Assembly: GCA_038232455.1 (NCBI GenBank)
Contig: JBBSHU010000003.1
Location: forward strand, 2,912-66,911
DNA length: 64,000 nt
Direction of reading: 5' to 3'
Origin: Acidimicrobiales bacterium
GTDB lineage: Bacteria; Actinomycetota; Acidimicrobiia; Acidimicrobiales; AC-14
Position numbers and translations under genes: made by a program. Of this stretch, positions 6,276 through 29,577 are shown piece by piece (position 1 is the stretch's first letter; each line of letters starts with the position of its first letter). Below the pieces are notes generated by a model. The model was not told the origin of the DNA and made no database searches. It saw nothing but the letters and a program-made list of their open reading frames with translations.

Positions 6276-6554
6276 ATGGACAGGCGAGGGCACAGGTTCG
6301 ACCTTGGTGACCGCACATGGCAGGGCCAGGCCAACTGCCTGGGGGTCGATCCCGACCTGTTCTTTCCGGAGCGAGGAGCGTCGACGCGCGAGGCCAAGTC
6401 CGTCTGTCGCGGATGTGTCGTGCGGGAGGACTGCCTCGAGTACGCACTCGTCAACGGCGAGAAGTTCGGGATCTGGGGCGGGCTGTCGGAGCGGGAGCGC
6501 CGGCGCATCCGCCGCCAGCGCGCCGGCGCCCGGCGCGACGTGGCCTCCGCCTGA
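6276..6554 (+). CDS. whiB: WhiB-family (Wbl) transcriptional regulator
   Basis: Four Cys in Wbl spacing (NCLGV ... CRGCVVREDC), the GIWGG turn and a basic tail ERERRRIRRQR. SD gaaggag lies 8 nt upstream. Confidence 0.9.
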   Translation: MDRRGHRFDLGDRTWQGQANCLGVDPDLFFPERGASTREAKSVCRGCVVREDCLEYALVNGEKFGIWGGLSERERRRIRRQRAGARRDVASA

Positions 6555-12674: not shown

Positions 12675-12735
12675 CGCTCGCTGCTGGCAGGCCGGACCGA
12701 GGGAACGAGGTGCGACCGACTCGGCGGCGCTGGAG

Positions 12736-13722
12736 ATGGACGTGAGCACTGTGGAGACACCGACACCCGAACGGCCCGCCATCGCGGGCCGTTCGTCGCG
12801 CAAGGTCGGCGACCGGGTGTTCCAGGCCCTGACCACCACCGTGGGTGCGATCGTCCTCGCCGTCCTCACCGTCATCACCGTCTTCCTCTTCGTCAAGGCA
12901 TGGCCGGCCCTGCGCTCCGCCGGACTCGGGTTCTTTACCGAGACGAAATGGTTCCCCGACACCAACCCGCCCACGTTCGGGGTGGCGGCGCTGCTGTGGG
13001 GCACGCTCCTGTCCAGCGTCATCGCCCTGGTGATCGCCGTACCCGTCGCCATCGGCTCGGCCCTGTACACCACCGAGTACGCCCCGGCCGTGGTCGGTCG
13101 CTGGGTGGGCTACCTGATCGACCTCCTCGCCGCCGTGCCCAGCGTCGTCTACGGGTTCTGGGGGGTCGTGTTCCTCGTGCCCCGGATGATCCCGCTGCAA
13201 CGGTGGCTCGCCCACCATCTGGGGTTCATCCCGCTCTTCCACGATCCCGACAACCTCTTCGGCAAGTCGATGTTCGCCGCCTCGGTGGTCCTCGCCCTGA
13301 TGGTCCTGCCCATCGTGGCCGCCGTCACCCGTGAGGTCTTCCGCCAGGTCCCCCGGGACATGCGCGAGGCGGCCCTGGCCCTCGGCGCCACCAGGTGGGA
13401 GATGATCCGCACCGCGGTCCTCCCCGCCAGCCGCAGCGGCATCGTCGGCGCCATCGTGCTCGGCCTGGGCCGGGCTCTCGGCGAGACCATCGCCATCGCC
13501 CTGGTGTTGGCGGCGACGTTCGACATCAACATCAAGATCCTCCAGCCCGGGGGCAACACGATCGCCGCCAACGTGGCCACCAAGTTCGGCGACGCCGGCT
13601 CACTGGGACGGTCGGCGCTGGTGGCCAGCGGCCTGGTCCTGTTCGCCATCACCCTGGCCGCCACCCTGTCCGCCCGCAGCGTCATCCGCCGCACCGGCCG
13701 CGCCGCCTCAGGCCTGGCATGA
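12736..13722 (+). CDS. pstC: phosphate ABC transporter permease PstC
   Basis: 328-aa multi-TM ORF with the EAA-like loop REAALALGATRWEMIRTAVLP, in pstC position. Confidence 0.9.
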   Translation: MDVSTVETPTPERPAIAGRSSRKVGDRVFQALTTTVGAIVLAVLTVITVFLFVKAWPALRSAGLGFFTETKWFPDTNPPTFGVAALLWGTLLSSVIALVIAVPVAIGSALYTTEYAPAVVGRWVGYLIDLLAAVPSVVYGFWGVVFLVPRMIPLQRWLAHHLGFIPLFHDPDNLFGKSMFAASVVLALMVLPIVAAVTREVFRQVPRDMREAALALGATRWEMIRTAVLPASRSGIVGAIVLGLGRALGETIAIALVLAATFDINIKILQPGGNTIAANVATKFGDAGSLGRSALVASGLVLFAITLAATLSARSVIRRTGRAASGLA

Positions 13723-13856
13723 GCCTCGTCGGGTCCTGTCACGTGGCCGGCCCCTCCCCCCGCCCTCCGGGCGGCGGGCCCCTCTCCACGTGCCACCCGT
13801 CTCGGGAGCGGAGTATCGACGCCCTTCGGGCGACGGCCAAGCCATGAGCCTCGTCG
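13718..13856 (+). repeat. 14-nt direct repeats flanking a 111-nt pstC/pstA spacer
   Basis: catgagcctcgtcg occurs at 13718-13731 (contains the pstC stop TGA) and again at 13843-13856 (contains the pstA ATG). Confidence 0.6.
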
Positions 13857-14911
13857 AGGAGCTGCCGGCTCCGGAGTTGCCGGCGTCGCCGCTGAGCAGT
13901 AAGAGGGGTCGGTTGCGCCGCTCCCAGTCCATCGGCGCGGCGGCCATCGGTGTCGCCATCGCCGCCGTCGCCTTCGTGTTGACGCCGCTGCAGGGGAGGG
14001 CCGACCTCGTCCTGGTGGCCTGGCTCTTTGGGACCGCCGCCTACCTGGTGGCGGCGGGCCGGGTCGAGGGCCGACGTTCGCTCGTCGACCGCCTGGCGGG
14101 CGTGTTCATGGTGACGGCGGTGGCCGTCTGCCTCATCGCCCTGGGATCGGTGCTCATCTACACCATCGTCCGCGGGGCCAAGGCTCTGCGCCCCGACTTC
14201 TTCACTCATTCGATGAAGGGGGTGGGGCCGAGGGACACGAGCGGTGGTGCCTACCACGCCATCATCGGCACCCTCGAAGAGGTGCTCCTGGCCTCGGTCA
14301 TCTCCGTGCCCGCCGGGCTGCTCGTGGCCATCTACCTCACCGAGTACGGCACCGGCGTGCTGGCCAGGGCGATCAGCACGATGGTCGACGTCATGGTGGG
14401 CATCCCGTCGGTGATCGCCGGCCTGTTCATCTACGCCTTCTGGGTCCTCGCCTTGCACCAGGGCTTCTCCGGGTTCGCCGCCGCCCTGGCCCTGTCGATC
14501 CTGATGCTGCCGATCGTCGTGCGCTCGGCTGAGGAGATGATCAAGCTCGTTCCGTCGTCCCTGCGGGAGGCGTCGTACGCCCTGGGCATCGCCCGCTGGC
14601 GCACCCTTCTCCGCGTCGTGCTGCCCACCGCATCGGCAGGCATCACCACCGGCGTCATGCTCGCCGTGGCCCGGGTGACGGGCGAGACGGCGCCGCTCCT
14701 GCTCACCTCCTTCGGCTTCGACTCGACCCGCACGAACCCTTTCAGCGGGCCCGAGGAGTCGCTCCCACTGTTCGTGTTCCGACAGGCGTCCTCGGCGTTC
14801 GACACGGCCATCGACCGGGCATGGGCCGCCGCCCTCACCCTGATCGTCGTCGTCGTGCTGCTCACCGTGGCCGCCCGGCTGCTCACCATCCGAAACCAGC
14901 TCAAGCCATGA
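13844..14911 (+). CDS. pstA: phosphate ABC transporter permease PstA
   Basis: ATG 13844 within ORF 13790..14911. Multi-TM with [21 protein letters not shown]. The stop overlaps the pstB ATG (ATGA). Confidence 0.9.
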
Positions 14912-15729
14912 GCTCCGACATCCTGGCGTCCACTGTCGCCGTCCGAGAGGCATCCATGAAGCGCATCGAAGCCGTCGATGTCAGCGCCTGGTATCGCAAG
15001 CACAAGGCCATCGAGGGGGTGACGATCACCCTCGAGCCCAAACACGTCACCGCCCTGATCGGGCCTTCGGGATGTGGGAAATCCACCTTCCTCCGCACCC
15101 TGAACCGCATGCACGAGGTCGTGCCCGGGGCCCGGGCCACGGGACAGGTCACCCTCGACGGGGAAGACATCTACGCCAGCGCCGTCGACCCGGTGGCCGT
15201 GCGCCGCGCCATCGGCATGGTGTTCCAGCGCCCCAATCCCTTCCCATCGATGTCGATCGGCGACAACGTGGCGGCCGGCATCAAGCTCAACGGCCGCCAC
15301 GACAAGGCGGCGATGAAGGACATCGTCGAGCGCTCCCTCAAGCTGGCCGGTCTGTGGGACGAGGTCAGCGACCGCCTCGACCGTCCCGGCGGCAGCCTCT
15401 CGGGCGGCCAGCAGCAGCGCCTGTGCATCGCCCGGGCCATCGCCGTGGAGCCCGCCGTGCTGCTCATGGACGAGCCCTGCTCAGCCCTCGACCCCATGTC
15501 GACCCTGCGCATCGAAGACCTCATCTCCGAGCTCAAGGACCGCTACACGATTGTCATCGTCACCCACAACATGCAACAGGCGGCGAGGGTCAGCGAGACG
15601 ACCGCATTCTTCAACCTCGATGCCGCCGGCGAGCCCGGCCGCATGGTCGAGGTCGGCCCCACGACCAAGATCTTCACCAAGCCCGACGACGAGCGCACCG
15701 AGGCCTACATCACCGGCCGGTTCGGATGA
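14908..15729 (+). CDS. pstB: phosphate ABC transporter ATP-binding protein PstB
   Basis: Walker [10 protein letters not shown], signature [14 protein letters not shown], Walker [12 protein letters not shown], and IVTHNMQQA. Confidence 0.95.
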
Positions 15730-16451: not shown

Positions 16452-17738
16452 ATGGTGGATGCGATGCAACTGGCCGCCAGTGATGCGGTCGTGGCCGGTG
16501 TGGCCGCAGCTGTGGTCCTCGTGGTGTTGGTGTGGGCCTGGCTTTTCCGGCGAAGCACGACCCGCCGACTCGCCTCACTGACGACGCGCCTCGACGAGGA
16601 GGGCGGCGACGAGCTGGTTTCCCGGGGCGGGATGGAGCGCAACATCTCCCGGCTCGAGCGGGCCGCCGAGCGGGCGGTCACCGACCGGGGGAGCGCCCGC
16701 CTGGCCCGCAGTCGCCTGGAGGGCGCCCTCCGCGTCGTCGGCATCGGCGTCGTGGTTTGCGACGAGTCGGGTGAGATCGTGTTCCAGAACGAGCAGGCCG
16801 ACGCCTTCATGGGTGACCGCCCGGCCGAGGCGGCCGAGGCGCTGGCCCACCAGGCGGTCACCGAGCTACTGGAGGCCGCCGCCGACGGTGAGGTCCAGAC
16901 CCAGACCCTCGACCTCTACGGTCCACCCCGACGCACGCTCACCATCGTGGCATCGCCGGTTGACGACGGCTGGCGGGGCCTCGGCGCGGTGGCCGTCATC
17001 GAGGATGTGTCCGATCGCCGTCACCTGGAGGCCGTGCGTCGCGACTTCGTGGCCAACATCAGCCACGAGCTGAAGACACCTGTCGGCGCCCTGGCCCTGC
17101 TGGCCGAGACCTTGGCCGGTGAGGACGACGCAGAGGTGGTCAACCGCCTGGCCCGGCGCCTCCAGCTCGAGTCACAGCGGGTGGCCCGCATCGTCGACGA
17201 TCTCCTCGATCTGAGTCGCATCGAATCGGAGGAGACGCCGATGCGCGAGCCGGTGGCCGTCCATCTGCTGGTCGCCGAGGCGGCCGAAAGGGTTCGCTCG
17301 GCGGCCGAGCAACGGGCGGTGACCATCACCTTCGGCGAGGGGGCCGAGCACCTGATCGTCAGGGGTGACCGTCGCCAGTTGGTGTCGGCCCTGTTCAACC
17401 TCCTCGAGAACTCGGTCAAGTACTCCGACGAGGGCTCCACGGTCGACGTGCGCTCGCACACCGACGGCGAGTGGGTCGAGCTCACCGTCACCGACCAGGG
17501 CATCGGCATTCCCGAGCGTGATCTCGAGCGTGTCTTCGAGCGCTTCTACCGGGTCGACCGGGCCCGGGGCCGCGACACCGGGGGGACGGGGCTGGGGCTG
17601 GCCATCGTCCGCCATGTGGCCAACAACCACGGGGGCGACGTCCGGGTGGAATCCCACGAGGGCACCGGGTCCAGCTTCACCCTCCGCATCCCCGCGGGGC
17701 CCGGCCCGGTGGCCATGAGCCCGGCCAAGGCCGGCTGA
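16452..17738 (+). CDS. sensor histidine kinase, SenX3/PhoR-like
   Basis: N-terminal TM, PAS-like segment, H-box ISHELKTPVGAL, N-box FNLLENSVKY, G-boxes DQGIGIP and GGTGLGLAIV. Position after phoU and before an OmpR-type regulator. Confidence 0.85.
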   Translation: MVDAMQLAASDAVVAGVAAAVVLVVLVWAWLFRRSTTRRLASLTTRLDEEGGDELVSRGGMERNISRLERAAERAVTDRGSARLARSRLEGALRVVGIGVVVCDESGEIVFQNEQADAFMGDRPAEAAEALAHQAVTELLEAAADGEVQTQTLDLYGPPRRTLTIVASPVDDGWRGLGAVAVIEDVSDRRHLEAVRRDFVANISHELKTPVGALALLAETLAGEDDAEVVNRLARRLQLESQRVARIVDDLLDLSRIESEETPMREPVAVHLLVAEAAERVRSAAEQRAVTITFGEGAEHLIVRGDRRQLVSALFNLLENSVKYSDEGSTVDVRSHTDGEWVELTVTDQGIGIPERDLERVFERFYRVDRARGRDTGGTGLGLAIVRHVANNHGGDVRVESHEGTGSSFTLRIPAGPGPVAMSPAKAG

Positions 17739-17761
17739 CAGCTGAGGGCCAGGGAGAACCG

Positions 17762-18469
17762 ATGGGAGAGCTGGGTGCCATGATCCTCGTCGTCGAGGAC
17801 GAGGAGTCGTTCGTGGAGGCCCTCACCGTGGGTCTCAAGCGGGAGGGCTTTCGCGTGAACGTCGCTCGCGACGGTGCCGACGCCCTGACGTTGTTCGACG
17901 TGGTCAAGCCTGATCTCGTGCTTCTCGACGTGATGCTCCCCCGGGTGTCGGGCCTCGACGTGTGCCGTGAGATCCGGCGCAGGTCCCGGGTACCGATCAT
18001 CATGGTGTCGGCCAAGACGGCAGAGATCGACACCGTCGTCGGGCTGGAGGTCGGCGCCGACGACTACGTGCCCAAGCCGTACCGGCTGCGAGAGCTGGTG
18101 GCCCGCATGCGGGCCGCGCTGCGCCGGGCGCCCGGTCCCGACGCACCCAGCAACGCCGCCACCCTCGAGGTCGGCGACGTGCGCCTCGACCCCGAACGCC
18201 ACGAGGTGTTCGTGCGAGGGGAGAAGGTGACCCTCCCGCTGAAGGAGTTCGAGTTGCTGGAGGTTCTCCTCGACAACGCCGGACGGGTGCTCACCCGCGA
18301 CTCGCTGATCGACCGTGTGTGGGGTGCCGACTACGTCGGCGACACCAAGACCCTCGACGTCCACGTGAAGCGCCTTCGGGCCAAGGTGGAGGAGAACTCG
18401 GCCCTCCCGCAGCGCATCGTCACCATCCGCGGCCTGGGATACAAGTACGAGTCGGTCTCCACCGGCTGA
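17762..18469 (+). CDS. OmpR/PhoB-family response regulator, RegX3/PhoP-like
   Basis: ILVVEDEESF...DLVLLDVMLPRVSGLD receiver domain and the winged helix ...IVTIRGLGYKY. Confidence 0.9.
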   Translation: MGELGAMILVVEDEESFVEALTVGLKREGFRVNVARDGADALTLFDVVKPDLVLLDVMLPRVSGLDVCREIRRRSRVPIIMVSAKTAEIDTVVGLEVGADDYVPKPYRLRELVARMRAALRRAPGPDAPSNAATLEVGDVRLDPERHEVFVRGEKVTLPLKEFELLEVLLDNAGRVLTRDSLIDRVWGADYVGDTKTLDVHVKRLRAKVEENSALPQRIVTIRGLGYKYESVSTG

Positions 18470-18524: not shown

Positions 18525-19030
18525 GTGGGGGTGAGGAGTCCTCTGGCGGCGGCGGCGGCGATGGTGGCCGTGGTGTCGGTGGTCCTCGGCGTCAGCACCA
18601 CGTCGACCCGATGTTCGACGACGTCCGGGGCCTCATCTCCGCGGCCGATCTGGCCATCTGTCACCAAGAGACGCCGATCTCCGCCGACGACACGGACATG
18701 GGCCCAGCGGATTCGCTGGTCTTCAACGTTCCCCGCGAGATCGGCGGTGCCCTGCGAAACGCCGGTTTCCGAGCTTGTGACACGGCGTCCCAGGCTCCCG
18801 GCCTGACCGACGACAACGAGGACGGCTCTCTCGAGATCTATACCATCGACGAGGTCTCGCCCGGCCGCCTTCAGGTCACCAAGATGACCTATGTCCCCAC
18901 CTGGGTGGAGATACCCGGACACCGGATCGTGCGGGCCACGCCGGACCACTACGGCGAGTCCTACAACCGCACGGTCGAAGCCATGAACCTGCTCGGGCCT
19001 GGTGCCTGCGACGCCCGGCCGGCGGCTTGA
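18525..19030 (+). pseudogene. CapA (PGA_cap metallophosphatase) family remnant
   Basis: The signal peptide VRSPLAAAAAMVAVVSVVLGVS is in one frame. CapA-like segments FDDVRGLISAADLAICHQETPIS...ALRNAGFRACDTAS and the C-terminal VTKMTYVPTWVE are in another. The central catalytic part (roughly 150-200 aa in family members, from memory) is absent. Confidence 0.5.
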
Positions 19031-19180
19031 GCCAGGCTCGACCCGGACCCGATTGAGCGGTTCGGGAAGTCGAGGTATCTAGAGGGGTTTGCCGCGCTCT
19101 GTGATAGGGAGGGCAGGTAGCCCCACGCGTAGCAACGCGGGCTGGAAGAATCGGCCCTCAACCCAAGGAGGAACACCCGG

Positions 19181-19717
19181 ATGGCCACGAAGATGAGCTT
19201 GCGGATACTGGCGATGGGCGTGATGGCATCGTCACTGGTGGTGGGGGGGGCCACGGTCGCGGCCGCCGGCCCCGGCGTTCCCAAGCCGGTGGTGTACGCG
19301 GCCGGTGCGCTGAAGGACCTCTCGGCGGCTTCCAATCCAACCGATGGCGCCAAGGCCAAGTTCTTGGCCACCGCCGGCCCCACCGGTACCCACGCCGTGC
19401 TCGTCGTCAAGGGCCTCGCCCCCACCGCGGTCGGCTCCACGTTCGGAGCCCATGTCCACGTCGGGTCCTGCGTCGCCGGCGCACCCTTGACGGCCGGGCC
19501 TCACTACAACTCCGGCCCTCCCGGCGCTCCCGCCGACCCGCAGCACGAGATCTGGCTCGACTTCACCGTCCTCCCGGGCGGCGTCGGGGTGGCACAGACG
19601 ACGGTGCCGTTCACCATTGCCCCCGGTGCCGCCAACTCCGTGGTGATCCACGCCCTGCCCACCCCGCCGGGGGGCAACGCCGGAACCCGCCTCGCCTGCC
19701 TGCCGGTCCAGTTCTGA
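19181..19717 (+). CDS. sodC: Cu/Zn superoxide dismutase-like secreted protein
   Basis: Signal peptide, GAHVHVGSC (H-x-H), GPHYN, HEIWLD, VVIHA and the C-terminal AGTRLACLPV. SD aaggagg lies 8 nt upstream. Confidence 0.8.
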   Translation: MATKMSLRILAMGVMASSLVVGGATVAAAGPGVPKPVVYAAGALKDLSAASNPTDGAKAKFLATAGPTGTHAVLVVKGLAPTAVGSTFGAHVHVGSCVAGAPLTAGPHYNSGPPGAPADPQHEIWLDFTVLPGGVGVAQTTVPFTIAPGAANSVVIHALPTPPGGNAGTRLACLPVQF

Positions 19718-19749
19718 CCGGACGTCACCTGAACAGCTGAATGGGCTCA

Positions 19750-19781
19750 GCCGTGGCCATCCCTTGGAGGGTGGCCACGGC
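19750..19781. terminator. bidirectional hairpin between convergent sodC-like and parA-like genes
   Basis: gccgtggcca (19750-19759) pairs perfectly with tggccacggc (19772-19781). The loop adds inner ccct/aggg pairing. No clear U-tract. Confidence 0.45.
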
Positions 19782-19784
19782 GCC

Positions 19785-20528
19785 TCAATCACACAACCGG
19801 ACTGCCACCTCCGCCCACAGATCGCGAAAGGCCCGGGCGGCAGGGGTGGAGGGTGCGAACGTGGCGACCGGGGCTCGTTCAGGGCCCATCCGCTCGATGA
19901 TGCTGGCGCCGGGGATCACCGTGGTGAGCAGGTCCGGCCATTCGGCCCGCAGGTTGTCGACCAGGTCCCGATGGAGTCGCTTGCGTCGATCGACCATCGA
20001 CAGGTAGGGCAGAAGCCCGGGTGCATCGGGGGTCCGGTCGAGGAAGCCGGCGAGCTGTCCGAGCGTGCGCGATGACAGCGTGGTGGGGATGACGGGCACC
20101 AGGAGCCCGTGGGCGGCCCCGAACACGCTCTCGCTGGCCAGGGAGATGCTCGGCGGGCAATCGAGGATGGCGACGTCGTAGCTGTCGGCCACGGCTTCGA
20201 GCAACGAGGCCAGGCGTTCGGTGGGCCGCTTCCGACCATCGAGGTGCAGGTCGAGGTGACGGAGGGAGAAGTCGGCAGGCACGACGTGCAGGCCGGGCAG
20301 GTCGGTGGCGCGTACGTGGGCGGCCAGCGCGCCCCTGCCGCTGACCAGGCGTTCGGTGCCGCCCTTCAGCTTGGGCTTGACCCGGAAGAAGAACGTGGCC
20401 GCGCCCTGGGGGTCGAGGTCCCACACAAGTACTCGGGCTCCGTTGCCGGCCGCCTCATAGGCGAGGTTCACCGCCGACGTCGTCTTTCCGACTCCTCCCT
20501 TGATGCTGTAGGTCGCCAGTACCTTCAC
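19785..20528 (-). CDS. orphan ParA/MinD-family P-loop ATPase
   Basis: GTG start. Deviant Walker A SIKGGVGKTTSAVNLA, DLDPQG, and Walker B VAILDCPPS. 247 aa, no N-terminal HTH and no parB nearby. The start overlaps the stop of the upstream CHAD gene (GTGA). Confidence 0.9.
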   Translation of the reverse strand: MKVLATYSIKGGVGKTTSAVNLAYEAAGNGARVLVWDLDPQGAATFFFRVKPKLKGGTERLVSGRGALAAHVRATDLPGLHVVPADFSLRHLDLHLDGRKRPTERLASLLEAVADSYDVAILDCPPSISLASESVFGAAHGLLVPVIPTTLSSRTLGQLAGFLDRTPDAPGLLPYLSMVDRRKRLHRDLVDNLRAEWPDLLTTVIPGASIIERMGPERAPVATFAPSTPAARAFRDLWAEVAVRLCD

Positions 20529-22087
20529 GGTGTGGCTTCCGCAGCCGAGCGGAGAAGGGTGTCGAGACGGCGACGGGTCTTGGCCGTGTCGTAGGCGGCG
20601 AAGCGCTCGGCGAACTCCGAGCGGGCGGCGATGCGACGTCGCTCGAACTCTCCGGCCAGCTGGCCCATGGCCACCAGCGTGTCGGCTCCGGCACCGGCGC
20701 CGGTCATCTCGTGGGACATCGCCCGCAGTTGGGCGGCGTGCACCTCGGTGTCCTGGTGTTCACCGAGGTTGTCCTGGAGCGCCTTCAGTCGTTGGACGAA
20801 TGCCTTGCGCTCGCCCGAGGGAACCACGGCACCGAAGCACTCGAGAAGGTAGCGGAGCTTCTTGGCGTCCTTGCGTAGCTCGTGCAGCTCCTCGGCCGGT
20901 GTATCCGGGCCGATCCCCCTTCCCCTGGCGACGAGGCGGTCGTTGGCAACGCGGATACGGCGGGCGGCGACCTCACCGATGGGAGCGGGGGCGTCGACGC
21001 CGAGGCGCTGTCCGCCCGCGGGTTCCCTCAGCCAGTCCCGCCACGCGCCCATGAGCTCGTGGAAGCGCTCGGACCTCAACAACATGGCCAACGCGACGTG
21101 CTCGTTTCGGCGCTGGTGGTCGATGTGTTCGAAAAGCGGCCCCAGCGCTGCGGCGACATCGGTTCCCAAGGGGCCCACGTAGGTGTCCCACTCGATCACG
21201 TACACATCGAGGTCGCGGGCCGGGCCGGTGGCTGCGCCGAGCCAGCCGAACCCCTCCCGGAAGCGATCGCGTGCGGCGGCAGGCAGGACTCGCTTCCCCT
21301 GGGCCAGCACCGAGCGGGTACGACGCACGGCCACCCGGAGGTCGTGCAGGAACTCCGGGTCGACATGTTCGATGGTGCCCTGACAGTTGGCGTCGACCTC
21401 GCCGGTCAGATTGGCGAGTACCCGGCGGAAGGCGTCGAACGCCGGCTCACGACGGTCGAGGGCCACGGTTGGCGATCCCGAGTGTCCGCCCAGGTCGACT
21501 CCGGCACTGGTAGCCGCGAAAGTCATGAGATCGCCGTCGAGCTGGTGGAGCCCGAGCGACCCCAGCAGAGCCCTCGCCCGCTCGGCGGCCTTGGGGTAGC
21601 CGGCCAATTCGTCGACCTCGGCCACCCAGCTCGGGCCCAGGCCGCGGTGCTCGCCGTCCGGAGCGCCGGTCAGGCCCTCCAGCTGGTCGTGGACGACCAC
21701 CGACGCCACGGTCTTGTCGAGCTTGTCGCGCTGCACGGCGGGCCTCTGGCGGCTGGCCAGACCCACGACGGGCATCAGGGCCCGGACGTCGAGCAGAGGG
21801 GCGAGGCGGGACCGGAGAGGCCCGACGGGGAGATCGGAACCGAACCGGGGAGGGCAGGACACGGGAATGTGGGCCGACGCCGGACCACCACCGGTGAGCA
21901 CCAGCTCGCGCCCCGACGCCTCCTGGAATTCGAGGCGCAGGCCTGCGGCATTGAGTCGACCGTCGAACGTGTCGAGCAGCGTCCGGCGCATCGCCAGGGC
22001 CGGGCCGGTTTCGAAACCACTCTCGGCCAGGGCCGCCAGGACGCCATCGGCGTCGATGCCCGGATGGGTATAGAGGGGGGAGGCCAC
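20525..22087 (-). CDS. CHAD-domain protein with degenerate CYTH-like N-terminus
   Basis: CHAD helices with conserved basic motifs LHDLRVAVRRTRSVL and LHELRKDAKKLRYLLECF, plus LGEHQD. The N-terminal ~190 aa are CYTH-like in length and position but lack the ExExK signature. Confidence 0.85.
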   Translation of the reverse strand: MASPLYTHPGIDADGVLAALAESGFETGPALAMRRTLLDTFDGRLNAAGLRLEFQEASGRELVLTGGGPASAHIPVSCPPRFGSDLPVGPLRSRLAPLLDVRALMPVVGLASRQRPAVQRDKLDKTVASVVVHDQLEGLTGAPDGEHRGLGPSWVAEVDELAGYPKAAERARALLGSLGLHQLDGDLMTFAATSAGVDLGGHSGSPTVALDRREPAFDAFRRVLANLTGEVDANCQGTIEHVDPEFLHDLRVAVRRTRSVLAQGKRVLPAAARDRFREGFGWLGAATGPARDLDVYVIEWDTYVGPLGTDVAAALGPLFEHIDHQRRNEHVALAMLLRSERFHELMGAWRDWLREPAGGQRLGVDAPAPIGEVAARRIRVANDRLVARGRGIGPDTPAEELHELRKDAKKLRYLLECFGAVVPSGERKAFVQRLKALQDNLGEHQDTEVHAAQLRAMSHEMTGAGAGADTLVAMGQLAGEFERRRIAARSEFAERFAAYDTAKTRRRLDTLLRSAAEATP

Positions 22088-22134
22088 GGTCCCGCCGAAT
22101 GTAGGCGGTCGACGACGACGCCGCGGCGGGCTCG

Positions 22135-23025
22135 TTAGGCGAAGCGGATGATGCTGATGAGGCCGGCGGCCAGGCTGTAGACGGCGAAGGGGAGCAGGGT
22201 CCCCGATCGGAAGAACCGGACCAGGAAGTGCACCGACACGAAGGCGGCGGCACCGGCGAAGAGGCTGCCGACGAGGGCCTGGGCCCGTACGCCGTCGCCC
22301 AGGCTGCCGGCCAGGTCGGGGACCTTGTAGATGCCCGCGGCGAGGATGATGGGAGTGGCCATCAGGAACGAGAAGCGGGCGGCGTCCTCGTGGTCGAGAC
22401 CCCGCAGCAGGCCGGCGACCATGGTGATCCCCGAACGGCTGATGCCGGCGAAGAGGGAGCCGACCTGGGCGACACCGATGGCCCCCGCTTCCTTGAAGTC
22501 AAGGGTGTCGAGACGTCGGCCCTCTTCCTCGCCGGAAGCCGACGTTGGGTGGGCGGCAACCAGCTTGCGGACGGCCGACCGCCGGCGGACCTGCTCGCCG
22601 GCCAGGAGGATGACCCCGTTGATGGTGAGGAAGATGGCGGCCGCCAAGGGCTTGGCGAACAGGGTGCGCAACGTGTGCTCGAGGGCGAGGCCGACCACCC
22701 CGGTGGGAATGGTGGCCACCACGAGCAGCCACGCCAGGCGTTCATCCGGCGTTTCGATCCGCCTGGTGCGCAGGGTGCGGAAGAAGCCACCGATGATGCG
22801 CACCCACTCGGCCCGGAAGTAGACGAGCAGGGCCACCGCGGTGGCGACGTGGAGGGCAACCACGAAGGCCAGGTAGAACGATTCGTCGGCGGACTGGGCG
22901 GTGACGAGGCGGTCCCATCCCAGCCATGCCGGCACCAGGACCGAGTGGCCCAGGCTGGAGATCGGGAACAGCTCGGTGACTCCCTGCAGGAGGCCGATCA
23001 CGATGGCCTGGAAGTAGGTGATCAT
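22135..23025 (-). CDS. uppP: undecaprenyl-diphosphate phosphatase
   Basis: MITYFQAIVIGLLQGVTELFPISSLGHSVLVP and GISRSGITM are BacA/UppP signatures; 8 TM-like segments. Confidence 0.95.
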   Translation of the reverse strand: MITYFQAIVIGLLQGVTELFPISSLGHSVLVPAWLGWDRLVTAQSADESFYLAFVVALHVATAVALLVYFRAEWVRIIGGFFRTLRTRRIETPDERLAWLLVVATIPTGVVGLALEHTLRTLFAKPLAAAIFLTINGVILLAGEQVRRRSAVRKLVAAHPTSASGEEEGRRLDTLDFKEAGAIGVAQVGSLFAGISRSGITMVAGLLRGLDHEDAARFSFLMATPIILAAGIYKVPDLAGSLGDGVRAQALVGSLFAGAAAFVSVHFLVRFFRSGTLLPFAVYSLAAGLISIIRFA

Positions 23026-23037
23026 GATGTCTTTCTA

Positions 23038-23052
23038 CTACGCCTGTCGTAG
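23038..23052. promoter_or_regulatory. candidate BlaI-family operator (CTACG-N5-CGTAG)
   Basis: ctacgcctgtcgtag is a perfect 5-5-5 inverted repeat in the 52-bp uppP/blaI divergent spacer. A further ctacgg lies at 23061. TAAAGT at 23067-23072 sits 5 nt before the GTG. Confidence 0.45.
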
Positions 23053-23077
23053 CGCAGCCTCTACGGTAAAGTCAGGC

Positions 23078-23473
23078 GTGACCGCGCGCCGAGACCGGGG
23101 CCGGGGACGCGTCGGATCACGACGCCGCCCCGGTGAGCTCGAGAGTGAAGTCCTTGCTGCGTTGTGGGCCGGGTCGGAGCCGATGCCTCCGGCCGAGGTG
23201 CAGGCCGCCATAGGTGGGGACCTGGCGTACACCACGGTCATGACGATCCTCGTGCGTCTACACGGAAAGGGACTGATCGAGCGCACCAAGGTGGGCCGGG
23301 CGTTCGCCTACCGGCCGGTGGTGGCCGAGACCGACGTGGTGGCCGACCAGGTGCGTCGCCTCCTCGCCCACGGCCACGACCGCGTCGCCGTGCTGCAGGG
23401 CTTCATCGACGGCCTGCGGCCGGGGGACGAGGCGATGCTGCGGAGCATGCTCGCCGACATCGGGGAGCCGTGA
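23078..23473 (+). CDS. blaI: BlaI/MecI/CopY-family transcriptional repressor
   Basis: LESEVLAALW...AYTTVMTILVRLHGKGLIERTKVGRAFAYRP is a winged-helix penicillinase-repressor fold. GTG 23078 chosen; the start is uncertain. Confidence 0.85.
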   Translation: MTARRDRGRGRVGSRRRPGELESEVLAALWAGSEPMPPAEVQAAIGGDLAYTTVMTILVRLHGKGLIERTKVGRAFAYRPVVAETDVVADQVRRLLAHGHDRVAVLQGFIDGLRPGDEAMLRSMLADIGEP

Positions 23474-23474
23474 C

Positions 23475-24431
23475 GTGCGGACGGTGATCTACGTTCCGTT
23501 CGCCCTCAGCCTGGCGTTCGTCGGCCTGAGCCGCCTGGTGTGCCGGCGGACGTCGCCGCGCCCCGCAGCGTGGTCGGTCGCTGTTGCCATGGTGGTCCTG
23601 GCCGGGTCCACCGTGGCTGCCCTCGGGCTGTTGGCCTGGCCGCTGGCGGCGCGTCTGCCGATGGTCGCCCACCTCGGAGGATGGCAGCCGGATGCGGTGA
23701 ACCATGGCGTGCCGGTTCCCGAACTGGAGTCGATCGTCGCCTCCCTTGTCCTCGCCGCTATTGCGGCGACGGCGTTCTGCCACCTGAGTCGTCTCCGTGG
23801 CGCCTGCGTCGAGATATCGACGATGCACGTCGACCTGGGACCGGCCGCGGTGGATGGCCTGGTCGTGATCGACGACCCTCAACCGGGTGCCCATGCCCTA
23901 CCCGCCACCCTTGCCCGCCGGGGCGTCGTCGTGGTGTCGACAGGAATGCTCGAGGCCCTCGACGACGACGAACGGGTCGCGGTTCTGGCCCACGAACGGG
24001 CCCACCTGGCCCACGCCCACCGGCTCTTCCTGGTCGTCGCCGGCCTGGCCGCAGCCTTGAACCCGCTGCTGGTGTCCTGTCGTGGCGATCTCGCTTTCGC
24101 CCTCGAGCGCTGGGCCGACGAGGATGCGGCCAGGCGGAGTGGCCGGACGGTCACCGCCCGGGCCCTGGCCAAGGCATCGCTGGCGAAGCTGGCGACCCTC
24201 CGCCCGCGGATCTCGCCGAGCCCGTTCTTGGGTCCGAACGGAGGTCTGGCCATGGAGCTCGTACGACTCGGCGTCCCTCACCGGGTTGCCGCACTTCTGG
24301 AGCCGGAACCCCGAGGTGGGCGCACCTGGCCGGCCTGGCTGCCGGCCGGACTGGCCGTCATCGGCATTGTCGCGGTCGTGTGGGCGACCCGCGACACCGA
24401 ACATCTTTTCGAGCTTCTCCAGGCGCACTGA
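23475..24431 (+). CDS. M56-family (BlaR1-like) membrane metallopeptidase
   Basis: Multi-TM N-terminus and the zinc motif VLAHERAHLAH (HExxH). It begins 2 nt after blaI. Confidence 0.8.
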   Translation: MRTVIYVPFALSLAFVGLSRLVCRRTSPRPAAWSVAVAMVVLAGSTVAALGLLAWPLAARLPMVAHLGGWQPDAVNHGVPVPELESIVASLVLAAIAATAFCHLSRLRGACVEISTMHVDLGPAAVDGLVVIDDPQPGAHALPATLARRGVVVVSTGMLEALDDDERVAVLAHERAHLAHAHRLFLVVAGLAAALNPLLVSCRGDLAFALERWADEDAARRSGRTVTARALAKASLAKLATLRPRISPSPFLGPNGGLAMELVRLGVPHRVAALLEPEPRGGRTWPAWLPAGLAVIGIVAVVWATRDTEHLFELLQAH

Positions 24432-24475: not shown

Positions 24476-24893
24476 ATGAGCGACATGAACGACTGGAACG
24501 CCAAGATCATCGAGGAGTTCCGCAGCAACGAGGGCAAGGTCGGCGGCCAGTTCGAGGGCGCACCCCTCCTTTTACTTCACAGCACCGGGGCCAAGAGCGG
24601 CGAGGAGCGGGTCAACCCGATGATGTACCAGGCAGTGGGGTCGGATATGGCCGTCTTCGCTTCCAAAGCGGGGCGCGCCGACCAATCCCGACTGGTACCA
24701 CAACCTGGTGGCCAACCCCCGGGCCATGGCCGAGGTGGGGACGGAGAAGGTTCACGTCACGGCCAGGGTCGCCGAAGGCGACGAGCGGGACCGCATCTGG
24801 ACGAAGCAGAAGGCCGACTACCCAGGCTTCGCCGAGTACGAGCAGGCCACGTCGCGCCAGATCCCCGTTGTCATCCTGACCCCGGAGAGCTGA
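24476..24893 (+). pseudogene. Ddn-family (F420H2-dependent nitroreductase-like) gene, frameshifted
   Basis: MSDMNDWNAKIIEEFRSNEGKVGGQFEGAPLLLLHSTGAKSGEERVNPMMY...FASKAG continues in the +1 frame as PTNPDWYHNLVANP...EGDERDRIWTKQKADYPGFAEYEQATSRQIPVVILTPES. There is an extra nucleotide in ggggcgcg (24670-24677). Confidence 0.75.
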
Positions 24894-25293
24894 TCCGCCC
24901 GATCCTGTCGGCCGCGCCTGTCGCGCAGCCGACGCAGGTCCGGGCGACGATGTGGGCTCTCATCCGGTCGATGCCGATCGGGCGCCCACAGCTCTCGCAG
25001 ACGCCGTAGGTCCCGACGAGAAGCCTTTCTCGGGCTTGGTCGATCGCGCCGAGGTGCCGACGAGCGTCGCTCACCAGCGCCGCCACCTGGGCCCGCTCGA
25101 ACCCCAGGGTTGCGCCTTCAGGGTCGTGCTCGTCGTCGGCCACCGTCAACGCACTCGACTCGATGATCGCGTCGAGTTGCTCCACGAGGCCGGCCAGGCG
25201 CGCCGACGCCTCGACCCGCTCGGACTCCAGCAGTGCGTCGAGTGCCCCCCGCTCCGCCGTGGTCAGACCGGGGCCGATTGGGTTCTCGCTCAT
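24871..25293 (-). CDS. TraR/DksA-family zinc-finger protein
   Basis: ATG 25293. Coiled-coil N-terminus and C4 finger CESCGRPIGIDRMRAHIVARTCVGC. Confidence 0.8.
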   Translation of the reverse strand: MSENPIGPGLTTAERGALDALLESERVEASARLAGLVEQLDAIIESSALTVADDEHDPEGATLGFERAQVAALVSDARRHLGAIDQARERLLVGTYGVCESCGRPIGIDRMRAHIVARTCVGCATGAADRIGRISSPGSG

Positions 25294-25329
25294 CTGAAGG
25301 ATGATCGCGCGGGCCGGGCAACTACTACC

Positions 25330-27462
25330 GTGGGAACCGTGACCGAATTGGATGTCAGAGCCGAGGGCGGCGACTCGGGGGCGTCGTCGGAGCACGGCGG
25401 CGAGCGCCGGTACCTCAACCGCGACCTGTCGTGGCTCGACTTCGCCGGCCGGGTGCTCACGCTGGCCGAGGACGACCACCAACCGGTGCTCGAAAGGGCG
25501 AAGTTCCTCGCTATCTTCAGTGACGGCCTCGACGAGTTCTTCCAGGTCCGCGTCGCCGGGCTCAAAGAGCAGGTCGCCGCCGGTCTGGGGGCCACCAGTC
25601 CCGACGGCATGAGCCCCACCGAGCAGCTACGCGCCATCTGCGAACGGGTGCACGAGCTGTTCGCCCGCCAGAGCCGGGCGTTCCTCGAAGGCGTGGCGCC
25701 GGGGTTGGCCGAAGCCGGCGTGGTGTTGTCCGACTGGGACTCGCTCGACGACGACGACCGCGAGTTCCTGGTGACGGCGTTCCACGAGCGCATCTTCCCG
25801 GTGCTGACCCCCCTTGCCGTCGACCCCGGCCATCCCTTCCCGTACATCTCGAACATGTCGCTGAACCTGGCGGTGACCGTGCGCGACGCCAACACGGGCG
25901 AGAACCGTTTCGCGCGGGTCAAGGTTCCCCCGCTGCTTCCCCGGTTCGTCGTGATGCCCGACGGTGAGCGTTTCGTGCCCATCGAACAGGTCATCGCCGC
26001 CCACCTGGGCACCTTGTTCCCGGGGATGGAGATCCAGGACCGGGAGTCGTTCCGGGTCACCCGAAATGCCGACCTGGCCATGGAGGAGGGCGAGGCCGAC
26101 GATCTGCTCGCGGCGGTGGAGCTGGAGCTGCGGCGGCGCCGGTTCGGCCGGGCCGTACGCCTCGAGGTCGACGCCAAGATGACCGAGGAGACCCGCCAGT
26201 TGCTCATGCGGGAGATGGAGATCCAGCCCGACGATCTCTATCCCGTCGAGAGCCCGCTCGACCTGGCCGGGCTGTGGTCGGTGTACGAGCTCGACCGTCC
26301 CGAGCTCAAGGACGAGACCTGGGTCGGCATCACCCAACCGGCGCTCGTCGACGCCGAAGGCGACCCCGCCAACGTGTTCGCCGTGCTGCGCGAGCGCGAC
26401 ATCCTCGTTCACCATCCCTACGACTCGTTCACCACGTCGGTGGTGGCCTTCGTGGAGCAGGCGGCCGCCGACCCGAGCGTGCTGGCCATCAAGCAGACCC
26501 TCTACCGCACGTCGGGCGACAGCCCCATCGTCAAGGCGCTGATCCGCGCCGCCGAGGCGGGCAAGCAGGTCGCCGTGCTGGTCGAGCTCAAGGCCCGTTT
26601 CGACGAGCAGGCCAACATCGCCTGGGCCCGTGCGCTCGAAGAGGCGGGGGTCCACGTGGTCTACGGGCTGGTCGGCCTGAAGACCCACACCAAGACCGCC
26701 CTGGTCGTGCGCGACGAGCCCGAGGGGATTCGCCGCTACTGCCACATCGGCACCGGCAACTACAACCCCAAGACGGCGCGGCTCTACGAGGACCTGGGCC
26801 TGCTGTCGGCCGATCCCGACCTGGGGTCCGACCTGAGCGAGTTGTTCAACTACCTCACCGGCTACAGCCGCAAGTCGCAGTACCGCAAGCTCCTCGTGGC
26901 CCCGCTGTCGTTGCGCTCGGAGATGGTGGGCCTCATCCAGGCCCAGCGCGACGCCGGCTCCGAGGGGCGGATCGTGATGAAGATGAACAGCCTGGTCGAC
27001 TCGGCGGTCATCGACGAGCTCTACGCGGCGTCGGAAGCCGGGGTCAGCATCGACCTGATCGTGCGGGGGATCTGCTGCCTGCGGCCCGGAGCGGATGGGC
27101 TGTCGGAGAACATTCGCGTCCGTTCGATCGTGGGCCGCTACCTGGAGCACTCCCGCATCTACGCCTTCGGACAACGCGAAGAGCGCCGGTACCTCATTGG
27201 TTCGGCCGACCTCATGCCCCGGAACCTGGACCGCCGCGTCGAGGCTGTCACGCCCATCGAGGATGTCGAGCTGCAGGCCCGCCTCCAGGAGATTCTCGAC
27301 GTGTGCCTGTCTGACGACCTGCTGGCCTCGGAGCTGCACGCCGACGGGTCGTGGCAAAAGGTCGCGGTCGAGAAGGAGGTCAACGCCCAGCTCCGCCTCC
27401 ACGAGCTGGCCCTCGAGCGGGGCCGGCGCCGGCGGGAGGCGGACGCGGTGAGACGTAGCTAA
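25330..27462 (+). CDS. ppk: polyphosphate kinase 1
   Basis: RYLNRDLSWLDFAGRVL, FLAIFSDGLDEFFQVR and HTKTALVVR, then two PLD-like C-domains (HSRIYAF). GTG 25330 or 25339 as start. Confidence 0.95.
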   Translation: MGTVTELDVRAEGGDSGASSEHGGERRYLNRDLSWLDFAGRVLTLAEDDHQPVLERAKFLAIFSDGLDEFFQVRVAGLKEQVAAGLGATSPDGMSPTEQLRAICERVHELFARQSRAFLEGVAPGLAEAGVVLSDWDSLDDDDREFLVTAFHERIFPVLTPLAVDPGHPFPYISNMSLNLAVTVRDANTGENRFARVKVPPLLPRFVVMPDGERFVPIEQVIAAHLGTLFPGMEIQDRESFRVTRNADLAMEEGEADDLLAAVELELRRRRFGRAVRLEVDAKMTEETRQLLMREMEIQPDDLYPVESPLDLAGLWSVYELDRPELKDETWVGITQPALVDAEGDPANVFAVLRERDILVHHPYDSFTTSVVAFVEQAAADPSVLAIKQTLYRTSGDSPIVKALIRAAEAGKQVAVLVELKARFDEQANIAWARALEEAGVHVVYGLVGLKTHTKTALVVRDEPEGIRRYCHIGTGNYNPKTARLYEDLGLLSADPDLGSDLSELFNYLTGYSRKSQYRKLLVAPLSLRSEMVGLIQAQRDAGSEGRIVMKMNSLVDSAVIDELYAASEAGVSIDLIVRGICCLRPGADGLSENIRVRSIVGRYLEHSRIYAFGQREERRYLIGSADLMPRNLDRRVEAVTPIEDVELQARLQEILDVCLSDDLLASELHADGSWQKVAVEKEVNAQLRLHELALERGRRRREADAVRRS

Positions 27463-27626: not shown

Positions 27627-29147
27627 GTGTCACCCACGAGATCGGCCACCGAGCGTGAGGTCAAGCTCGGGGCGCGGGCCGGATTTCGCCTTCCCGATCT
27701 CGACGGCGTGTTCGAGGGTGTGACGTCGGCCCCGCTGGCCGAGCGCGACCTCAAGGCGGTGTACTACGACACTGACGACCTCCGCCTGGCGCGGTGGGGC
27801 GTCACCGTGCGCCATCGCACGGGCGAAGGCACGGTCTGGACGGTGAAGCTCCCCGAGGGGGAGGAAGGCCCCGCCCTCGTGCGGCGGGAGGTGAGTTGCG
27901 ACGGCCCCGCCGACACGGTTCCCGACGAGGCCCTCGGCCTGGTCCGTGCCTACCTGCGGCAAGAGCCTCTCGTGGTCGTCGCCCACATCCACACCAAGAG
28001 GTCGGGGGTGGTCCTGAGCGATGTCGAGGGCCAGCAGGTGGCCGAGGTGGTCGACGACGAGGTGTCGGTGCTCCACGGCGGCCGGGTGGCCGCCCGCTTT
28101 CGCGAGGTGGAGGTCGAAGTCGCCGATCGGGCCGCGTCCGGTCTGATCCACGCGGTTGTCGGGCGGCTCCGTGAAGCCGGGGCCGGCAAGCCCGACGCAA
28201 CGCCGAAGTTGGTGCGCGCCCTGGGCGAGCGAGCCCTGGAACCCGCAGAGTTGTCGGGCGTCGAGCTCGGTGAGGAGCCCACCGCCGCCGACGTGATCCG
28301 GGCGACCATGGTGGAGTCGGTCACGCGGATCCTGCGCCACGACGCCGGCGTTCGCCTCGGCGACGACCCCGAGGACATCCACCAGGCGCGCGTCGGCACC
28401 CGCCGTCTGCGCTCCGACCTGCGAACGTTCGCTCCCCTGCTCGACGACGAATGGGTCAAGTCTCTGCGCCGCGACCTCAAGTGGCTGGGCGGCGAGCTGG
28501 GAGCCGTACGCGACGCCGACGTGTTGGCCGAGCGGCTGAGGAAGCAGGCCGACGCCCTTCCTGAGCGCGACGGTGCCGGCCTGGCCCCGCTGTACCGCCG
28601 GTTGGCCAAGGAACGCGAGGAAGCGGGCACCCGGCTGCTCGCGGCCATGTCGGGCGACCGTTACGTCGACCTGCTCGACCGCCTGGTCTCCGGTGCCAGT
28701 GCCCCGGAGGTGCGCCGGGAGGCCGACGGGCCCGCCCGCCGGGTCGTGCCCGACTTGGTGGGCCGCCCGTGGCGTCACCTCAAGAAGGTGGTCGGCCAAC
28801 TGCCGTCGGAGCCTTCCGACGCCGAGCTCCATGAGGTTCGCATCCGGACCAAGCGCACCCGGTACGCCGTGGAAGCGGCCATCCCCGCGGTCGGTGGCGG
28901 GGCGAGGAAGTTCGCCAAGTCGCTGGCCCGTCTGCAGGCCGTGCTGGGTGACCATCAGGATGCGGTCGTCGCCGAGGAGTGGCTACGCAAGGCGGCCAGC
29001 GAGGCCGGCGGGGCGAGTGCGGCCGAAGCTTTGGCGGCAGGCGAGCTCATCGCCGTACAGCGGGCCGAGGAGGCCACCAGCCGGGCCGCCTGGCCGGCAG
29101 CCTGGAAGAAGGTGACCCAGAAGAGGCGGCGGTCGGGGCTTGGGTGA
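27627..29147 (+). CDS. CYTH (triphosphate tunnel metalloenzyme) plus CHAD domain protein
   Basis: N-terminal EREVKL (ExExK), then CHAD motifs IHQARVGTRRLRSDLR, LHEVRIRTKRTRYAVE and LGDHQD. Confidence 0.9.
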   Translation: MSPTRSATEREVKLGARAGFRLPDLDGVFEGVTSAPLAERDLKAVYYDTDDLRLARWGVTVRHRTGEGTVWTVKLPEGEEGPALVRREVSCDGPADTVPDEALGLVRAYLRQEPLVVVAHIHTKRSGVVLSDVEGQQVAEVVDDEVSVLHGGRVAARFREVEVEVADRAASGLIHAVVGRLREAGAGKPDATPKLVRALGERALEPAELSGVELGEEPTAADVIRATMVESVTRILRHDAGVRLGDDPEDIHQARVGTRRLRSDLRTFAPLLDDEWVKSLRRDLKWLGGELGAVRDADVLAERLRKQADALPERDGAGLAPLYRRLAKEREEAGTRLLAAMSGDRYVDLLDRLVSGASAPEVRREADGPARRVVPDLVGRPWRHLKKVVGQLPSEPSDAELHEVRIRTKRTRYAVEAAIPAVGGGARKFAKSLARLQAVLGDHQDAVVAEEWLRKAASEAGGASAAEALAAGELIAVQRAEEATSRAAWPAAWKKVTQKRRRSGLG

Positions 29148-29164
29148 CGAGGAGGCGGCGGCAC

Positions 29165-29557: not shown

Positions 29558-29577
29558 CGTTCTACGATTTCGCGCCA

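Follow-up and report, generated by a model that had tools for sequence, protein, structure and literature searches.

A conserved CHAD and ParA-like gene pair as a candidate system for positioning polyphosphate granules

In a 64 kb stretch of DNA from an Acidimicrobiales bacterium (contig JBBSHU010000003.1 of assembly GCA_038232455.1; the whole stretch is hereafter called the window), two overlapping genes encode a 520-amino acid (aa) protein that we call CHAD1, in which a degenerate TTM/CYTH domain precedes a CHAD domain, and, directly downstream, a 247-aa ATPase of the ParA/Soj type. We found the same two genes side by side in bacteria of several phyla, with the polyphosphate-contacting residues of the CHAD domain and the nucleotide-binding motifs of the ATPase conserved. 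Taken together, the data make it very probable that this ATPase subfamily is functionally coupled to inorganic polyphosphate (polyP) through CHAD1. A more specific proposal is that the pair forms a ParA-type system for the positioning or partitioning of polyP granules, a reading for which we consider the case evenly balanced. In its fullest form, which we put forward more tentatively, the pair would be the first system dedicated to placing and partitioning a body of inorganic polymer at the expense of ATP, spacing it on the nucleoid by means of a TTM-CHAD adaptor. The coordinates of all features are given in Table 1.

The two genes are translationally coupled. The GTG start codon of the ATPase gene shares bases with the TGA stop codon of CHAD1 in a GTGA sequence, and position 20528 is the earliest start available to the ATPase open reading frame (ORF). 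Both ORFs have good coding statistics (0.84 G+C at third codon positions, GC3) in a window of about 70% G+C, and the closest homologues are from Acidimicrobiales. The initial annotation of this DNA, made from the letters alone, had described the overlap, the KGGVGKTT motif of the ATPase, the lack of a helix-turn-helix and the CHAD helix motifs LHDLRVAVRRTRS, LHELRKDAKKLRYLLE and LGEHQD in the upstream protein, and each of these was verified: all three helix motifs are present, and the ATPase has neither a helix-turn-helix nor any other N-terminal extension, its Walker A motif starting at residue 10.

Gene order gives strong evidence for a functional link. One genome per species was scanned with the window ATPase, and 80 loci were returned, six of which carried too little upstream sequence, leaving 74 evaluable. 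Of these, 57 have a full-length orthologue of CHAD1 (30-71% identity, N-terminal domain included) directly upstream of the ATPase gene on the same strand, and 17 have no CHAD gene beside it. The stop-to-start gap was -4 nucleotides (nt) in 35 of the 57 linked loci (ATGA or GTGA) and -1 nt in four more; the remaining gaps were mostly 25 nt or less, and only one exceeded 39 nt. As an independent sample, metagenomic contigs were scanned with the most divergent ATPase, that of Chlorobaculum, as seed, and gave another 80 loci, of which five were too short. Among the 75 evaluable ones CHAD1 was directly upstream in 63, downstream in one and absent in 11. The single reversed locus (L101, 2383-5058) has its CHAD1-type gene about 600 nt downstream of the ATPase gene. 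The adjacency that the initial annotation had proposed to look for in Actinomycetota is therefore present in 121 of 149 evaluable loci and extends beyond that phylum. Chance adjacency of CHAD1 and the ATPase is ruled out by its recurrence across phyla in about 120 other loci.

The linked genome loci belong to Acidimicrobiia (including Iamiaceae and Candidatus Microthrix parvicella, L011), Solirubrobacteraceae (Thermoleophilia), Methylococcales (including Methylotuvimicrobium buryatense 5G, Methylomonas lenta and a Bathymodiolus symbiont), Rhodospirillales, Desulfuromonadales and Chlorobi. Linked pairs thus occur in at least four bacterial phyla, to which the literature adds Acidithiobacillia. 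In a neighbour-joining tree the ATPases of the genome sample formed one tight clade far from Bacillus subtilis Soj. The genome loci without a CHAD gene correspond to one nested Methylobacter/Crenothrix subclade plus locus L049, every other evaluable genome locus being linked, which indicates a secondary loss of the linkage. The Methylobacter ATPase gene sits between a GGDEF gene and the glycogen phosphorylase gene glgP; this type of locus, with glgP following on the same strand, was seen in L030 (6001-9335) and in at least 15 more (for example L031, L039-L042, L112, L122 and L133). In the CHAD-linked M. lenta locus (L075) glgP lies about 2 kb away. The subfamily may have been co-opted there to serve stores of carbohydrate, or glgP may be leftover synteny. 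The remaining loci without CHAD shared no neighbour that we could find.

The CHAD domain of CHAD1 was recognised by the Pfam CHAD model (PF05235) over aa 223-455 with an E-value of 8.8e-56 (189.9 bits; gathering threshold 25.6). No NCBIfam model reached its cut-off with CHAD1 or with the ATPase. The AlphaFold 2 (AF2) model of CHAD1, for which the alignment held 51 homologues, is confident throughout (predicted local distance difference test, pLDDT, 94.4), and its CHAD domain shows two four-helix bundles around a central basic pore, as in CHAD domains of the long type. By phmmer the domain matched PDB entries 3e0s and 6qv7 (E-values 5e-42 and 2e-41), and Foldseek superimposed it on CtCHAD and on the CtCHAD-polyP complex (6qv7/6qva) with template-modelling (TM) scores of 0.90-0.93 and a root-mean-square deviation of 2.0 Å. 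CtCHAD comprises residues 208-522 of the Chlorobium tepidum protein Q8KE09; it binds polyP, has been crystallised with a polyP 9-mer, and loses up to 150-fold of its polyP binding when H253/R256/R260, R296 or R418/Y419 are mutated (Lorenzo-Orts et al. 2019, PMC6537752). The same study found CHAD domains to be polyP-specific, with no binding of nucleic acids. These six central contacts correspond to H248, R251, R255, R291, R412 and Y413 of CHAD1, all of them invariant across the 51 homologues. The distal CtCHAD patches are kept in part: R385 and K390 have basic equivalents in CHAD1, K386 and K389 have none, and R438 is shifted by one residue. CHAD1 is the orthologue of CtCHAD and a putative adaptor of the polyP granule (a phosin).

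The N-terminal domain of CHAD1 has no Pfam CYTH match, and its TTM nature was seen at the level of fold. Foldseek aligned it with about 40 TTM chains (TMt 0.5-0.69), thiamine triphosphatases and class IV cyclases among them, with PDB matches to 7ns8, 2een, 5a65, 2gfg and the full-length YgiF structure 5a60, and the eight-stranded beta-tunnel is present. Strand beta1 reads PLYTHPG where the catalytic ExExK would be expected, and ExExK is absent from the aligned CHAD1 orthologues, including those of other phyla. The domain had been proposed to be a CYTH relic lacking ExExK, set against a paralogue next to ppk1 that keeps the motif; both statements are right, the first at the level of fold and motif, the second because the paralogue carries EREVK and matches Pfam CYTH with 33.4 bits. 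CHAD1-type paralogues with a degenerate TTM domain and a CHAD domain were also seen in Chlorobium at L082 (5001-6578), L083 and L084 (both 5001-6554). These loci have no ParA-like gene, and their gene order is pstCAB, phoU, a gene for a protein of 368-387 aa that we could not assign, CHAD and ppk1.

In many loci the pair is accompanied by genes of polyP and phosphate metabolism. Immediately upstream of it, on the same strand, ppk1 is found in Desulfuromonadales, in Chlorobi and in one Acidimicrobiia locus; pst and phoRP genes lie nearby in several Acidimicrobiales loci, and others are flanked by pst, phoU, PPK2, a Na/Pi (inorganic phosphate) transporter or a His-phosphatase gene. The Chlorobaculum genome GCA_001602925 encodes a CHAD protein 98% identical to CtCHAD over the crystallised domain, and there ppk1, a gene for a 265-aa repeat protein, CHAD and a 247-aa ParA-like gene follow one another; two more Chlorobiaceae loci have this four-gene order. 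The protein between ppk1 and CHAD (241-284 aa; L081 5183-5980, L085 3147-4001 and L086 3276-4001) matched no Pfam model. Its gene overlaps the CHAD start in L085 and L086, and in L081 the protein consists of about ten leucine-rich-like repeats of 22 residues (CSGNxLxSLxGxP); it may be a lineage-specific third component. The ATPase encoded next to CHAD in Chlorobaculum is about 42% identical to the window ATPase, versus 19% for the solved structure 3ea0, deposited as a 'ParA family ATPase from Chlorobium tepidum', which ranked 49th against the window model and is unlikely to be the ATPase adjacent to CtCHAD.

We then come to the ATPase itself. It matched Pfam AAA_31 (2e-31) and CbiA and fell below the NCBIfam cut-offs for ParA_partition (78.4 bits; cut-off 180) and RepA (81.6 bits; cut-off 348). 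Its best solved sequence relative is Thermus thermophilus Soj (1e-21), and identity to Soj is about 30%. The AF2 model (pLDDT 81.5) gave Soj/ParA structures as top Foldseek matches (TM 0.73-0.83), followed by MinD, McdA, BcsQ and FlhG. The Walker A motif follows the deviant definition KGGxxK[ST] (PMC9178275, Table 1). In the orthologues D37 and D39 (Walker A') and D123 are invariant, and K15 is kept as well. There is no extra C-terminal amphipathic, membrane-targeting helix of the MinD type: the protein closes with its core helix (aa 229-246 of 247), which lines up with the C-terminus of T. thermophilus Soj. R182 does not vary among 42 homologues from Acidimicrobiia and is nearly invariant across phyla. 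It aligns with R189 of B. subtilis Soj, the arginine for non-specific DNA binding. On sequence and model, the protein is an intact Soj-like ParA.

The composition of the subfamily bears on what this ATPase does. We searched 1.84 billion representative sequences exhaustively with the window ATPase, and at E<=1e-30 obtained 423 clusters (50% identity), the best 150 of which all scored at least 183 bits. About 90% of the representatives are plain ATPases of 245-260 aa with no enzymatic domain. Among the best 150 of the 423 clusters, 12 are fusions of 504-544 aa with the ParA-like ATPase at residues 1-245 and a CYTH domain at the C-terminus, five of them confirmed by Pfam CYTH (36-73 bits; cut-off 23.2) and seven detected by a hidden Markov model (HMM) built from the tails of those five. 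Proteins P0371, P0386, P0393, P0408, P0414, P0436 and P0489 are fusions of this kind. Clear ExExK motifs (EIEFK, EVEFK) are present in at least four of the tails, and others are degenerate. All three fusion loci examined (L167 3427-6515, L168 3463-6566 and L169 1-2906) lie directly behind a CHAD1-type gene with overlapping codons, and L168 has PPK2, Na/Pi cotransporter and His-phosphatase genes on its flanks. The fusions are evidence, separate from gene order, that the ATPase subfamily belongs with TTM and CHAD biology, and they make a physical ATPase-TTM contact plausible. The tail HMM found no match in the CHAD1 N-terminal domain or in the paralogue at 27627, so the fused CYTH belongs to another TTM lineage than the CHAD1 domain, and the Rosetta-stone argument holds at the level of the domain family only. 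One more representative (P0492, locus L170) is fused to a sucrose-6F-phosphate phosphohydrolase.

These fusions also raise the question of whether the ATPase could be an ATP-dependent switch for the biogenesis, size or turnover of granules, and not a positioning factor. Comparable to the regulators MipZ, FlhG and BcsQ, it would license or limit the site of PPK1 nucleation, recruit or gate TTM/CHAD proteins and polyphosphatases, or report the ATP level to polyP metabolism. The ExExK-bearing CYTH fusions and the phosphohydrolase fusion speak for such a switch, as do the tight linkage to ppk1, PPK2, pst, phoU and His-phosphatase genes, the want of a typical ATPase-activating tail on CHAD1, and BcsQ, FlhG and MinD as near structural relatives. 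However, by sequence and fold the closest relatives are the Soj-type partition ATPases, the DNA-binding arginine of Soj is retained, and the great majority of representatives are plain ATPases, and for these reasons we regard a switch as rather unlikely.

A second feature of the ATPase is specific to the subfamily. At the site of loop L23 of Helicobacter pylori ParA it carries a basic loop whose consensus, FR[VI][KR][PA][KR]x[KR]GG, is kept in members outside Chlorobi across phyla, where B. subtilis Soj has GLGIKADVEQ; the Chlorobi ATPases keep FRI only, followed by a diverged, less basic stretch (FRIKASRKYNS). The loop is flexible in the AF2 model, with pLDDT below 50 at residues 55-62. In H. 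pylori ParA, loop L23 clamps the N-terminal peptide of ParB, and it is a variable, partner-specific region of the family (PMC11229316). A motif kept at this site in the non-Chlorobi members argues for a conserved, dedicated partner; being basic, the motif could have an acidic protein surface or polyP as its ligand. If the ligand were polyP, polyP itself, instead of DNA, could serve as the matrix of the ATPase, bound by the basic loop (R49, K51, K53, K55) and the DRRKR patch of ATP dimers, and with CHAD1 the ATPase would form a dynamic shell that shapes granules or prevents their fusion. DNA and polyP are both polyanions, which would make such an exchange conceivable; the loop is basic, flexible and conserved at the dimer-proximal partner site, which in H. 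pylori ParA binds a basic peptide, and the CYTH fusion would place a triphosphate-binding tunnel on the same polypeptide. We nevertheless consider this improbable: polyP is not known to serve any ParA/MinD protein as a matrix, basic patches of ParA are not known as polyP binders, with CHAD being the polyP-specific partner, and the loop is less basic in Chlorobi.

An ordinary ParA would be expected to have a ParB and a centromere. As the initial annotation had it, no such partner was found in the window: the Pfam scan of about 45 window ORFs (at least 90 aa, high GC3) returned no ParB-domain protein, the parS consensus had zero matches in the window with up to three mismatches allowed, and a search of 19500-23300 for centromere or iteron repeat arrays gave chance-level matches only. 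A DNA-partition ParA with its ParB/parS elsewhere in the genome, next to a CHAD gene that is unrelated or merely co-regulated, would account for the Soj-like fold and motifs, and our view of this genome extends to 64 kb. It would not account for the roughly 30% identity to Soj, the separate clade and the shortfall against the ParA_partition model (78 versus 180 bits), nor for the empty surroundings, for a neighbour with overlapping codons that across phyla is CHAD and not ParB, or for the CYTH fusions, and we hold this explanation to be highly improbable.

For the positioning of polyP granules by the pair, the following sequence of events can be proposed. CHAD1 would coat or cap polyP through the pore of its CHAD domain, an activity demonstrated for the orthologue CtCHAD. 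The ATPase would sit as ATP-sandwich dimers on a matrix, most likely the nucleoid, held by the basic patch around R182, and the dimers would contact CHAD1-decorated granules through the basic loop, at the place where partners usually bind. ATP hydrolysis and release would then be stimulated by CHAD1 or by the granule, so that granules would track a gradient of the ATPase, spread out at intervals along the nucleoid and pass to both daughter cells. This refines the original suggestion that a non-catalytic CHAD protein links polyP granules to a ParA gradient. The conserved pairing, the polyP-contact residues and the intact ATPase lend it support; the positioning step is still inference, the TTM domain is not specific to ParA-linked proteins, and the Methylobacter/Crenothrix clade has no adjacent CHAD gene.

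Several observations weigh against a positioning role. About 19% of the evaluable loci have no CHAD gene beside the ATPase. The CHAD1 model is folded from end to end and has no disordered basic tail like those of the activators ParB, McdB and MinE. In the ATPase, one of the DNA-binding positions of Soj, the PRNVR region, is not kept. The catalytically competent CYTH fusions and the single sugar-phosphate phosphatase fusion hint at an enzymatic or regulatory role. The degenerate TTM domain occurs in the Chlorobium CHAD paralogues that have no ParA, so it cannot yet be called an adaptor element, and the degenerate TTM-CHAD architecture is older or wider than its link to the ATPase. Finally, according to an April 2026 preprint from a ParA/MinD laboratory, polyP spacing in Synechococcus elongatus does not depend on ParA-type ATPases, and a ParA-type granule system therefore cannot be general.

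The window around the pair fits the initial description of a region rich in phosphate and polyP genes: pstSCAB, a PhoR/PhoP-like pair, ppk1, the catalytic-type CYTH-CHAD paralogue and ppx were all identified, as were a NUDIX gene and a His-phosphatase gene. The last two belong to a group 3' of ppk1 and the CYTH-CHAD gene (28979-30042 and 30276-31244) that encodes a NUDIX hydrolase, a SixA-like histidine phosphatase and an esterase with a polyhydroxybutyrate-depolymerase-type domain. The ppk1 ORF has an N-terminal extension of about 150 aa ahead of the first PPK domain (aa 154), and this extension overlaps in antisense an ORF of 203 aa that encodes a DksA/TraR zinc finger (24871-25482, minus strand); ppk1 probably starts near 25.4 kb and diverges from the dksA-like gene. 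Upstream of CHAD1, at a distance of 47 nt, lies uppP/bacA, which may be co-transcribed with the pair; this order recurs elsewhere only in locus L002, and uppP/bacA was accordingly placed outside the conserved module. The convergent neighbour of the ATPase gene (19181-19717, plus strand) encodes a 178-aa protein resembling Cu/Zn superoxide dismutase, with 24 bits against a Pfam cut-off of 28.9. A scan of 19000-23600 for consensus promoters and terminators found none, a result that tells little at 70% G+C. Two cell-organisation genes without an evident tie to the CHAD1-ATPase module were also seen, one for an unusually long protein of 723 aa with an N-terminal DivIVA domain (58493-60664) and the other for an MreB homologue (48221-49288).

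Table 1. Positions of the gene pair, its domains and motifs, and phosphate-related genes in the window
Feature	Position	Strand	Basis
pstSCAB	11589-15729		Pfam; Pi context
PhoR/PhoP-like pair	16452-18469		Pfam; Pi context
ParA/Soj-like ATPase gene, 247 aa	19785-20528	minus	ORF, Pfam AAA_31/CbiA, AF2, Foldseek
R182 in basic run DRRKRLHR	19983-19985	minus	Aligned with B. subtilis Soj R189
Walker B region DVAILDCPP, D123	20151-20177	minus	D123, C124 and P126 invariant
Basic loop F48-R-V-K-P-K-L-K-G-G57	20358-20387	minus	Subfamily-specific; site of H. pylori ParA loop L23
Deviant Walker A KGGVGKTT, aa 10-17, signature lysine K10	20478-20501	minus	Invariant in orthologues
GTGA start/stop overlap (translational coupling)	20525-20528	minus	Plus strand reads TCAC
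CHAD1 gene, 520 aa, degenerate TTM + CHAD	20525-22087	minus	ORF, Pfam CHAD, AF2, Foldseek
CHAD1 long CHAD domain, aa 206-520, central pore	20528-21472	minus	phmmer, Foldseek, residue alignment
CHAD1 N-terminal domain, aa 1-205, TTM/CYTH fold without ExExK	21473-22087	minus	Foldseek, orthologue alignment
uppP/bacA	22135-23025	minus	Pfam BacA
ppk1	24952-27462	plus	Pfam
CYTH-CHAD paralogue, catalytic type	27627-29147	plus	Pfam CHAD + CYTH, EREVK
ppx	42225-43754		Pfam; Pi/polyP context

In several bacteria the nucleoid carries polyP granules at even intervals, and a 2025 polyP review and the April 2026 preprint both state that the basis of their positioning is undefined. Neither a 2024 review of ParA/MinD ATPases nor a study of the seven such ATPases of Halothiobacillus neapolitanus names polyP or CHAD as cargo. 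We found no description of a CHAD-ParA granule system in the literature searched, which did not cover Iyer & Aravind 2002 or Tumlirsch & Jendrossek 2017, and no text in it that pairs 'CHAD domain' with 'ParA family'. The early impression that no dedicated system of this kind had been described thus agrees with our search, with the reservation that the gene cluster of Acidithiobacillus has been drawn twice. Two papers depict a conserved folD-ppk-parA-CHAD cluster there, with ParA labelled as a chromosome or plasmid partition protein; one reads the cluster as an adenylate-cyclase/cyclic AMP operon, and the other treats it in the context of copper resistance. Within the literature searched, that cluster is what was already known, and the wide conservation of the pair and its proposed meaning are what is new here.

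For a machine devoted to organising or positioning polyP granules, the CHAD1-ATPase pair is at present the best candidate, and it offers a concrete two-gene handle on granule placement and inheritance, with the structure of the partner domain, CtCHAD, already solved. The module occurs in cultivable and partly tractable organisms, namely M. buryatense 5G, M. lenta, Chlorobaculum and Acidithiobacillus. It is also present in Candidatus Microthrix parvicella, which lives in wastewater and is of interest for phosphorus removal. Should the positioning reading hold, an inorganic polymer would join DNA and protein assemblies as cargo of ParA/MinD ATPases, a function would be at hand for CHAD phosins and for degenerate TTM domains, and the engineering of granule number and inheritance for phosphorus recovery could follow. 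On that reading the pair would bring a new class of partner and a new, inorganic cargo into the ParA/MinD positioning paradigm.

Among known systems, the pair McdA/McdB, which positions carboxysomes in cyanobacteria and proteobacteria, is close in its logic: in both cases a small ParA-type ATPase gene adjoins the gene of its partner, the cargo is a non-DNA body associated with the nucleoid, a Brownian ratchet would be expected, and McdA (6nop, 6non) is among the structural neighbours of the ATPase model. The differences are also clear. McdB is small and disordered with a basic N-terminus, whereas CHAD1 is a fully folded TTM-CHAD protein; McdA has the motif SGGQGKT (PMC9178275), whereas the window ATPase keeps the signature lysine; and in the window the partner gene comes first, with overlapping codons, and the proposed cargo is a granule of inorganic polymer. 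Soj of the Soj/Spo0J system (ParABS) is the best match of the ATPase in sequence and fold, and the two share KGGVGKT, the catalytic aspartates and the R189-equivalent arginine, but the ATPase has no ParB/parS in the window, has its own basic motif at L23 and remains below the NCBIfam cut-off.

On the side of the partner, CtCHAD (Q8KE09; 3E0S, 6QV7, 6QVA) resembles CHAD1 in its length of about 520 aa, a CHAD domain of the long type that encloses a central pore, the six contacts and a ParA-like gene downstream, with about 29% identity over the full length; the text of its structural study (PMC6537752) covers the CHAD domain and leaves the N-terminal domain and the downstream ATPase unaddressed. 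Escherichia coli YgiF has the same order of a TTM and then a CHAD domain, but its tunnel carries the catalytic ExExK and its CHAD domain is short and lacks a pore (PMC6537752), whereas CHAD1 has no ExExK and a long CHAD domain. The Acidithiobacillus cluster appears to be the same module, since its CYTH-CHAD gene, ppk and parA are conserved together, although its CYTH residues are reported to be conserved and CHAD1 lacks ExExK. The only protein so far implicated in the even spacing of polyP granules on the nucleoid is the histone H1-like AlgP of Pseudomonas aeruginosa, a passive DNA- and polyP-binding protein with no ATPase and no sequence relationship to the CHAD1-ATPase pair.

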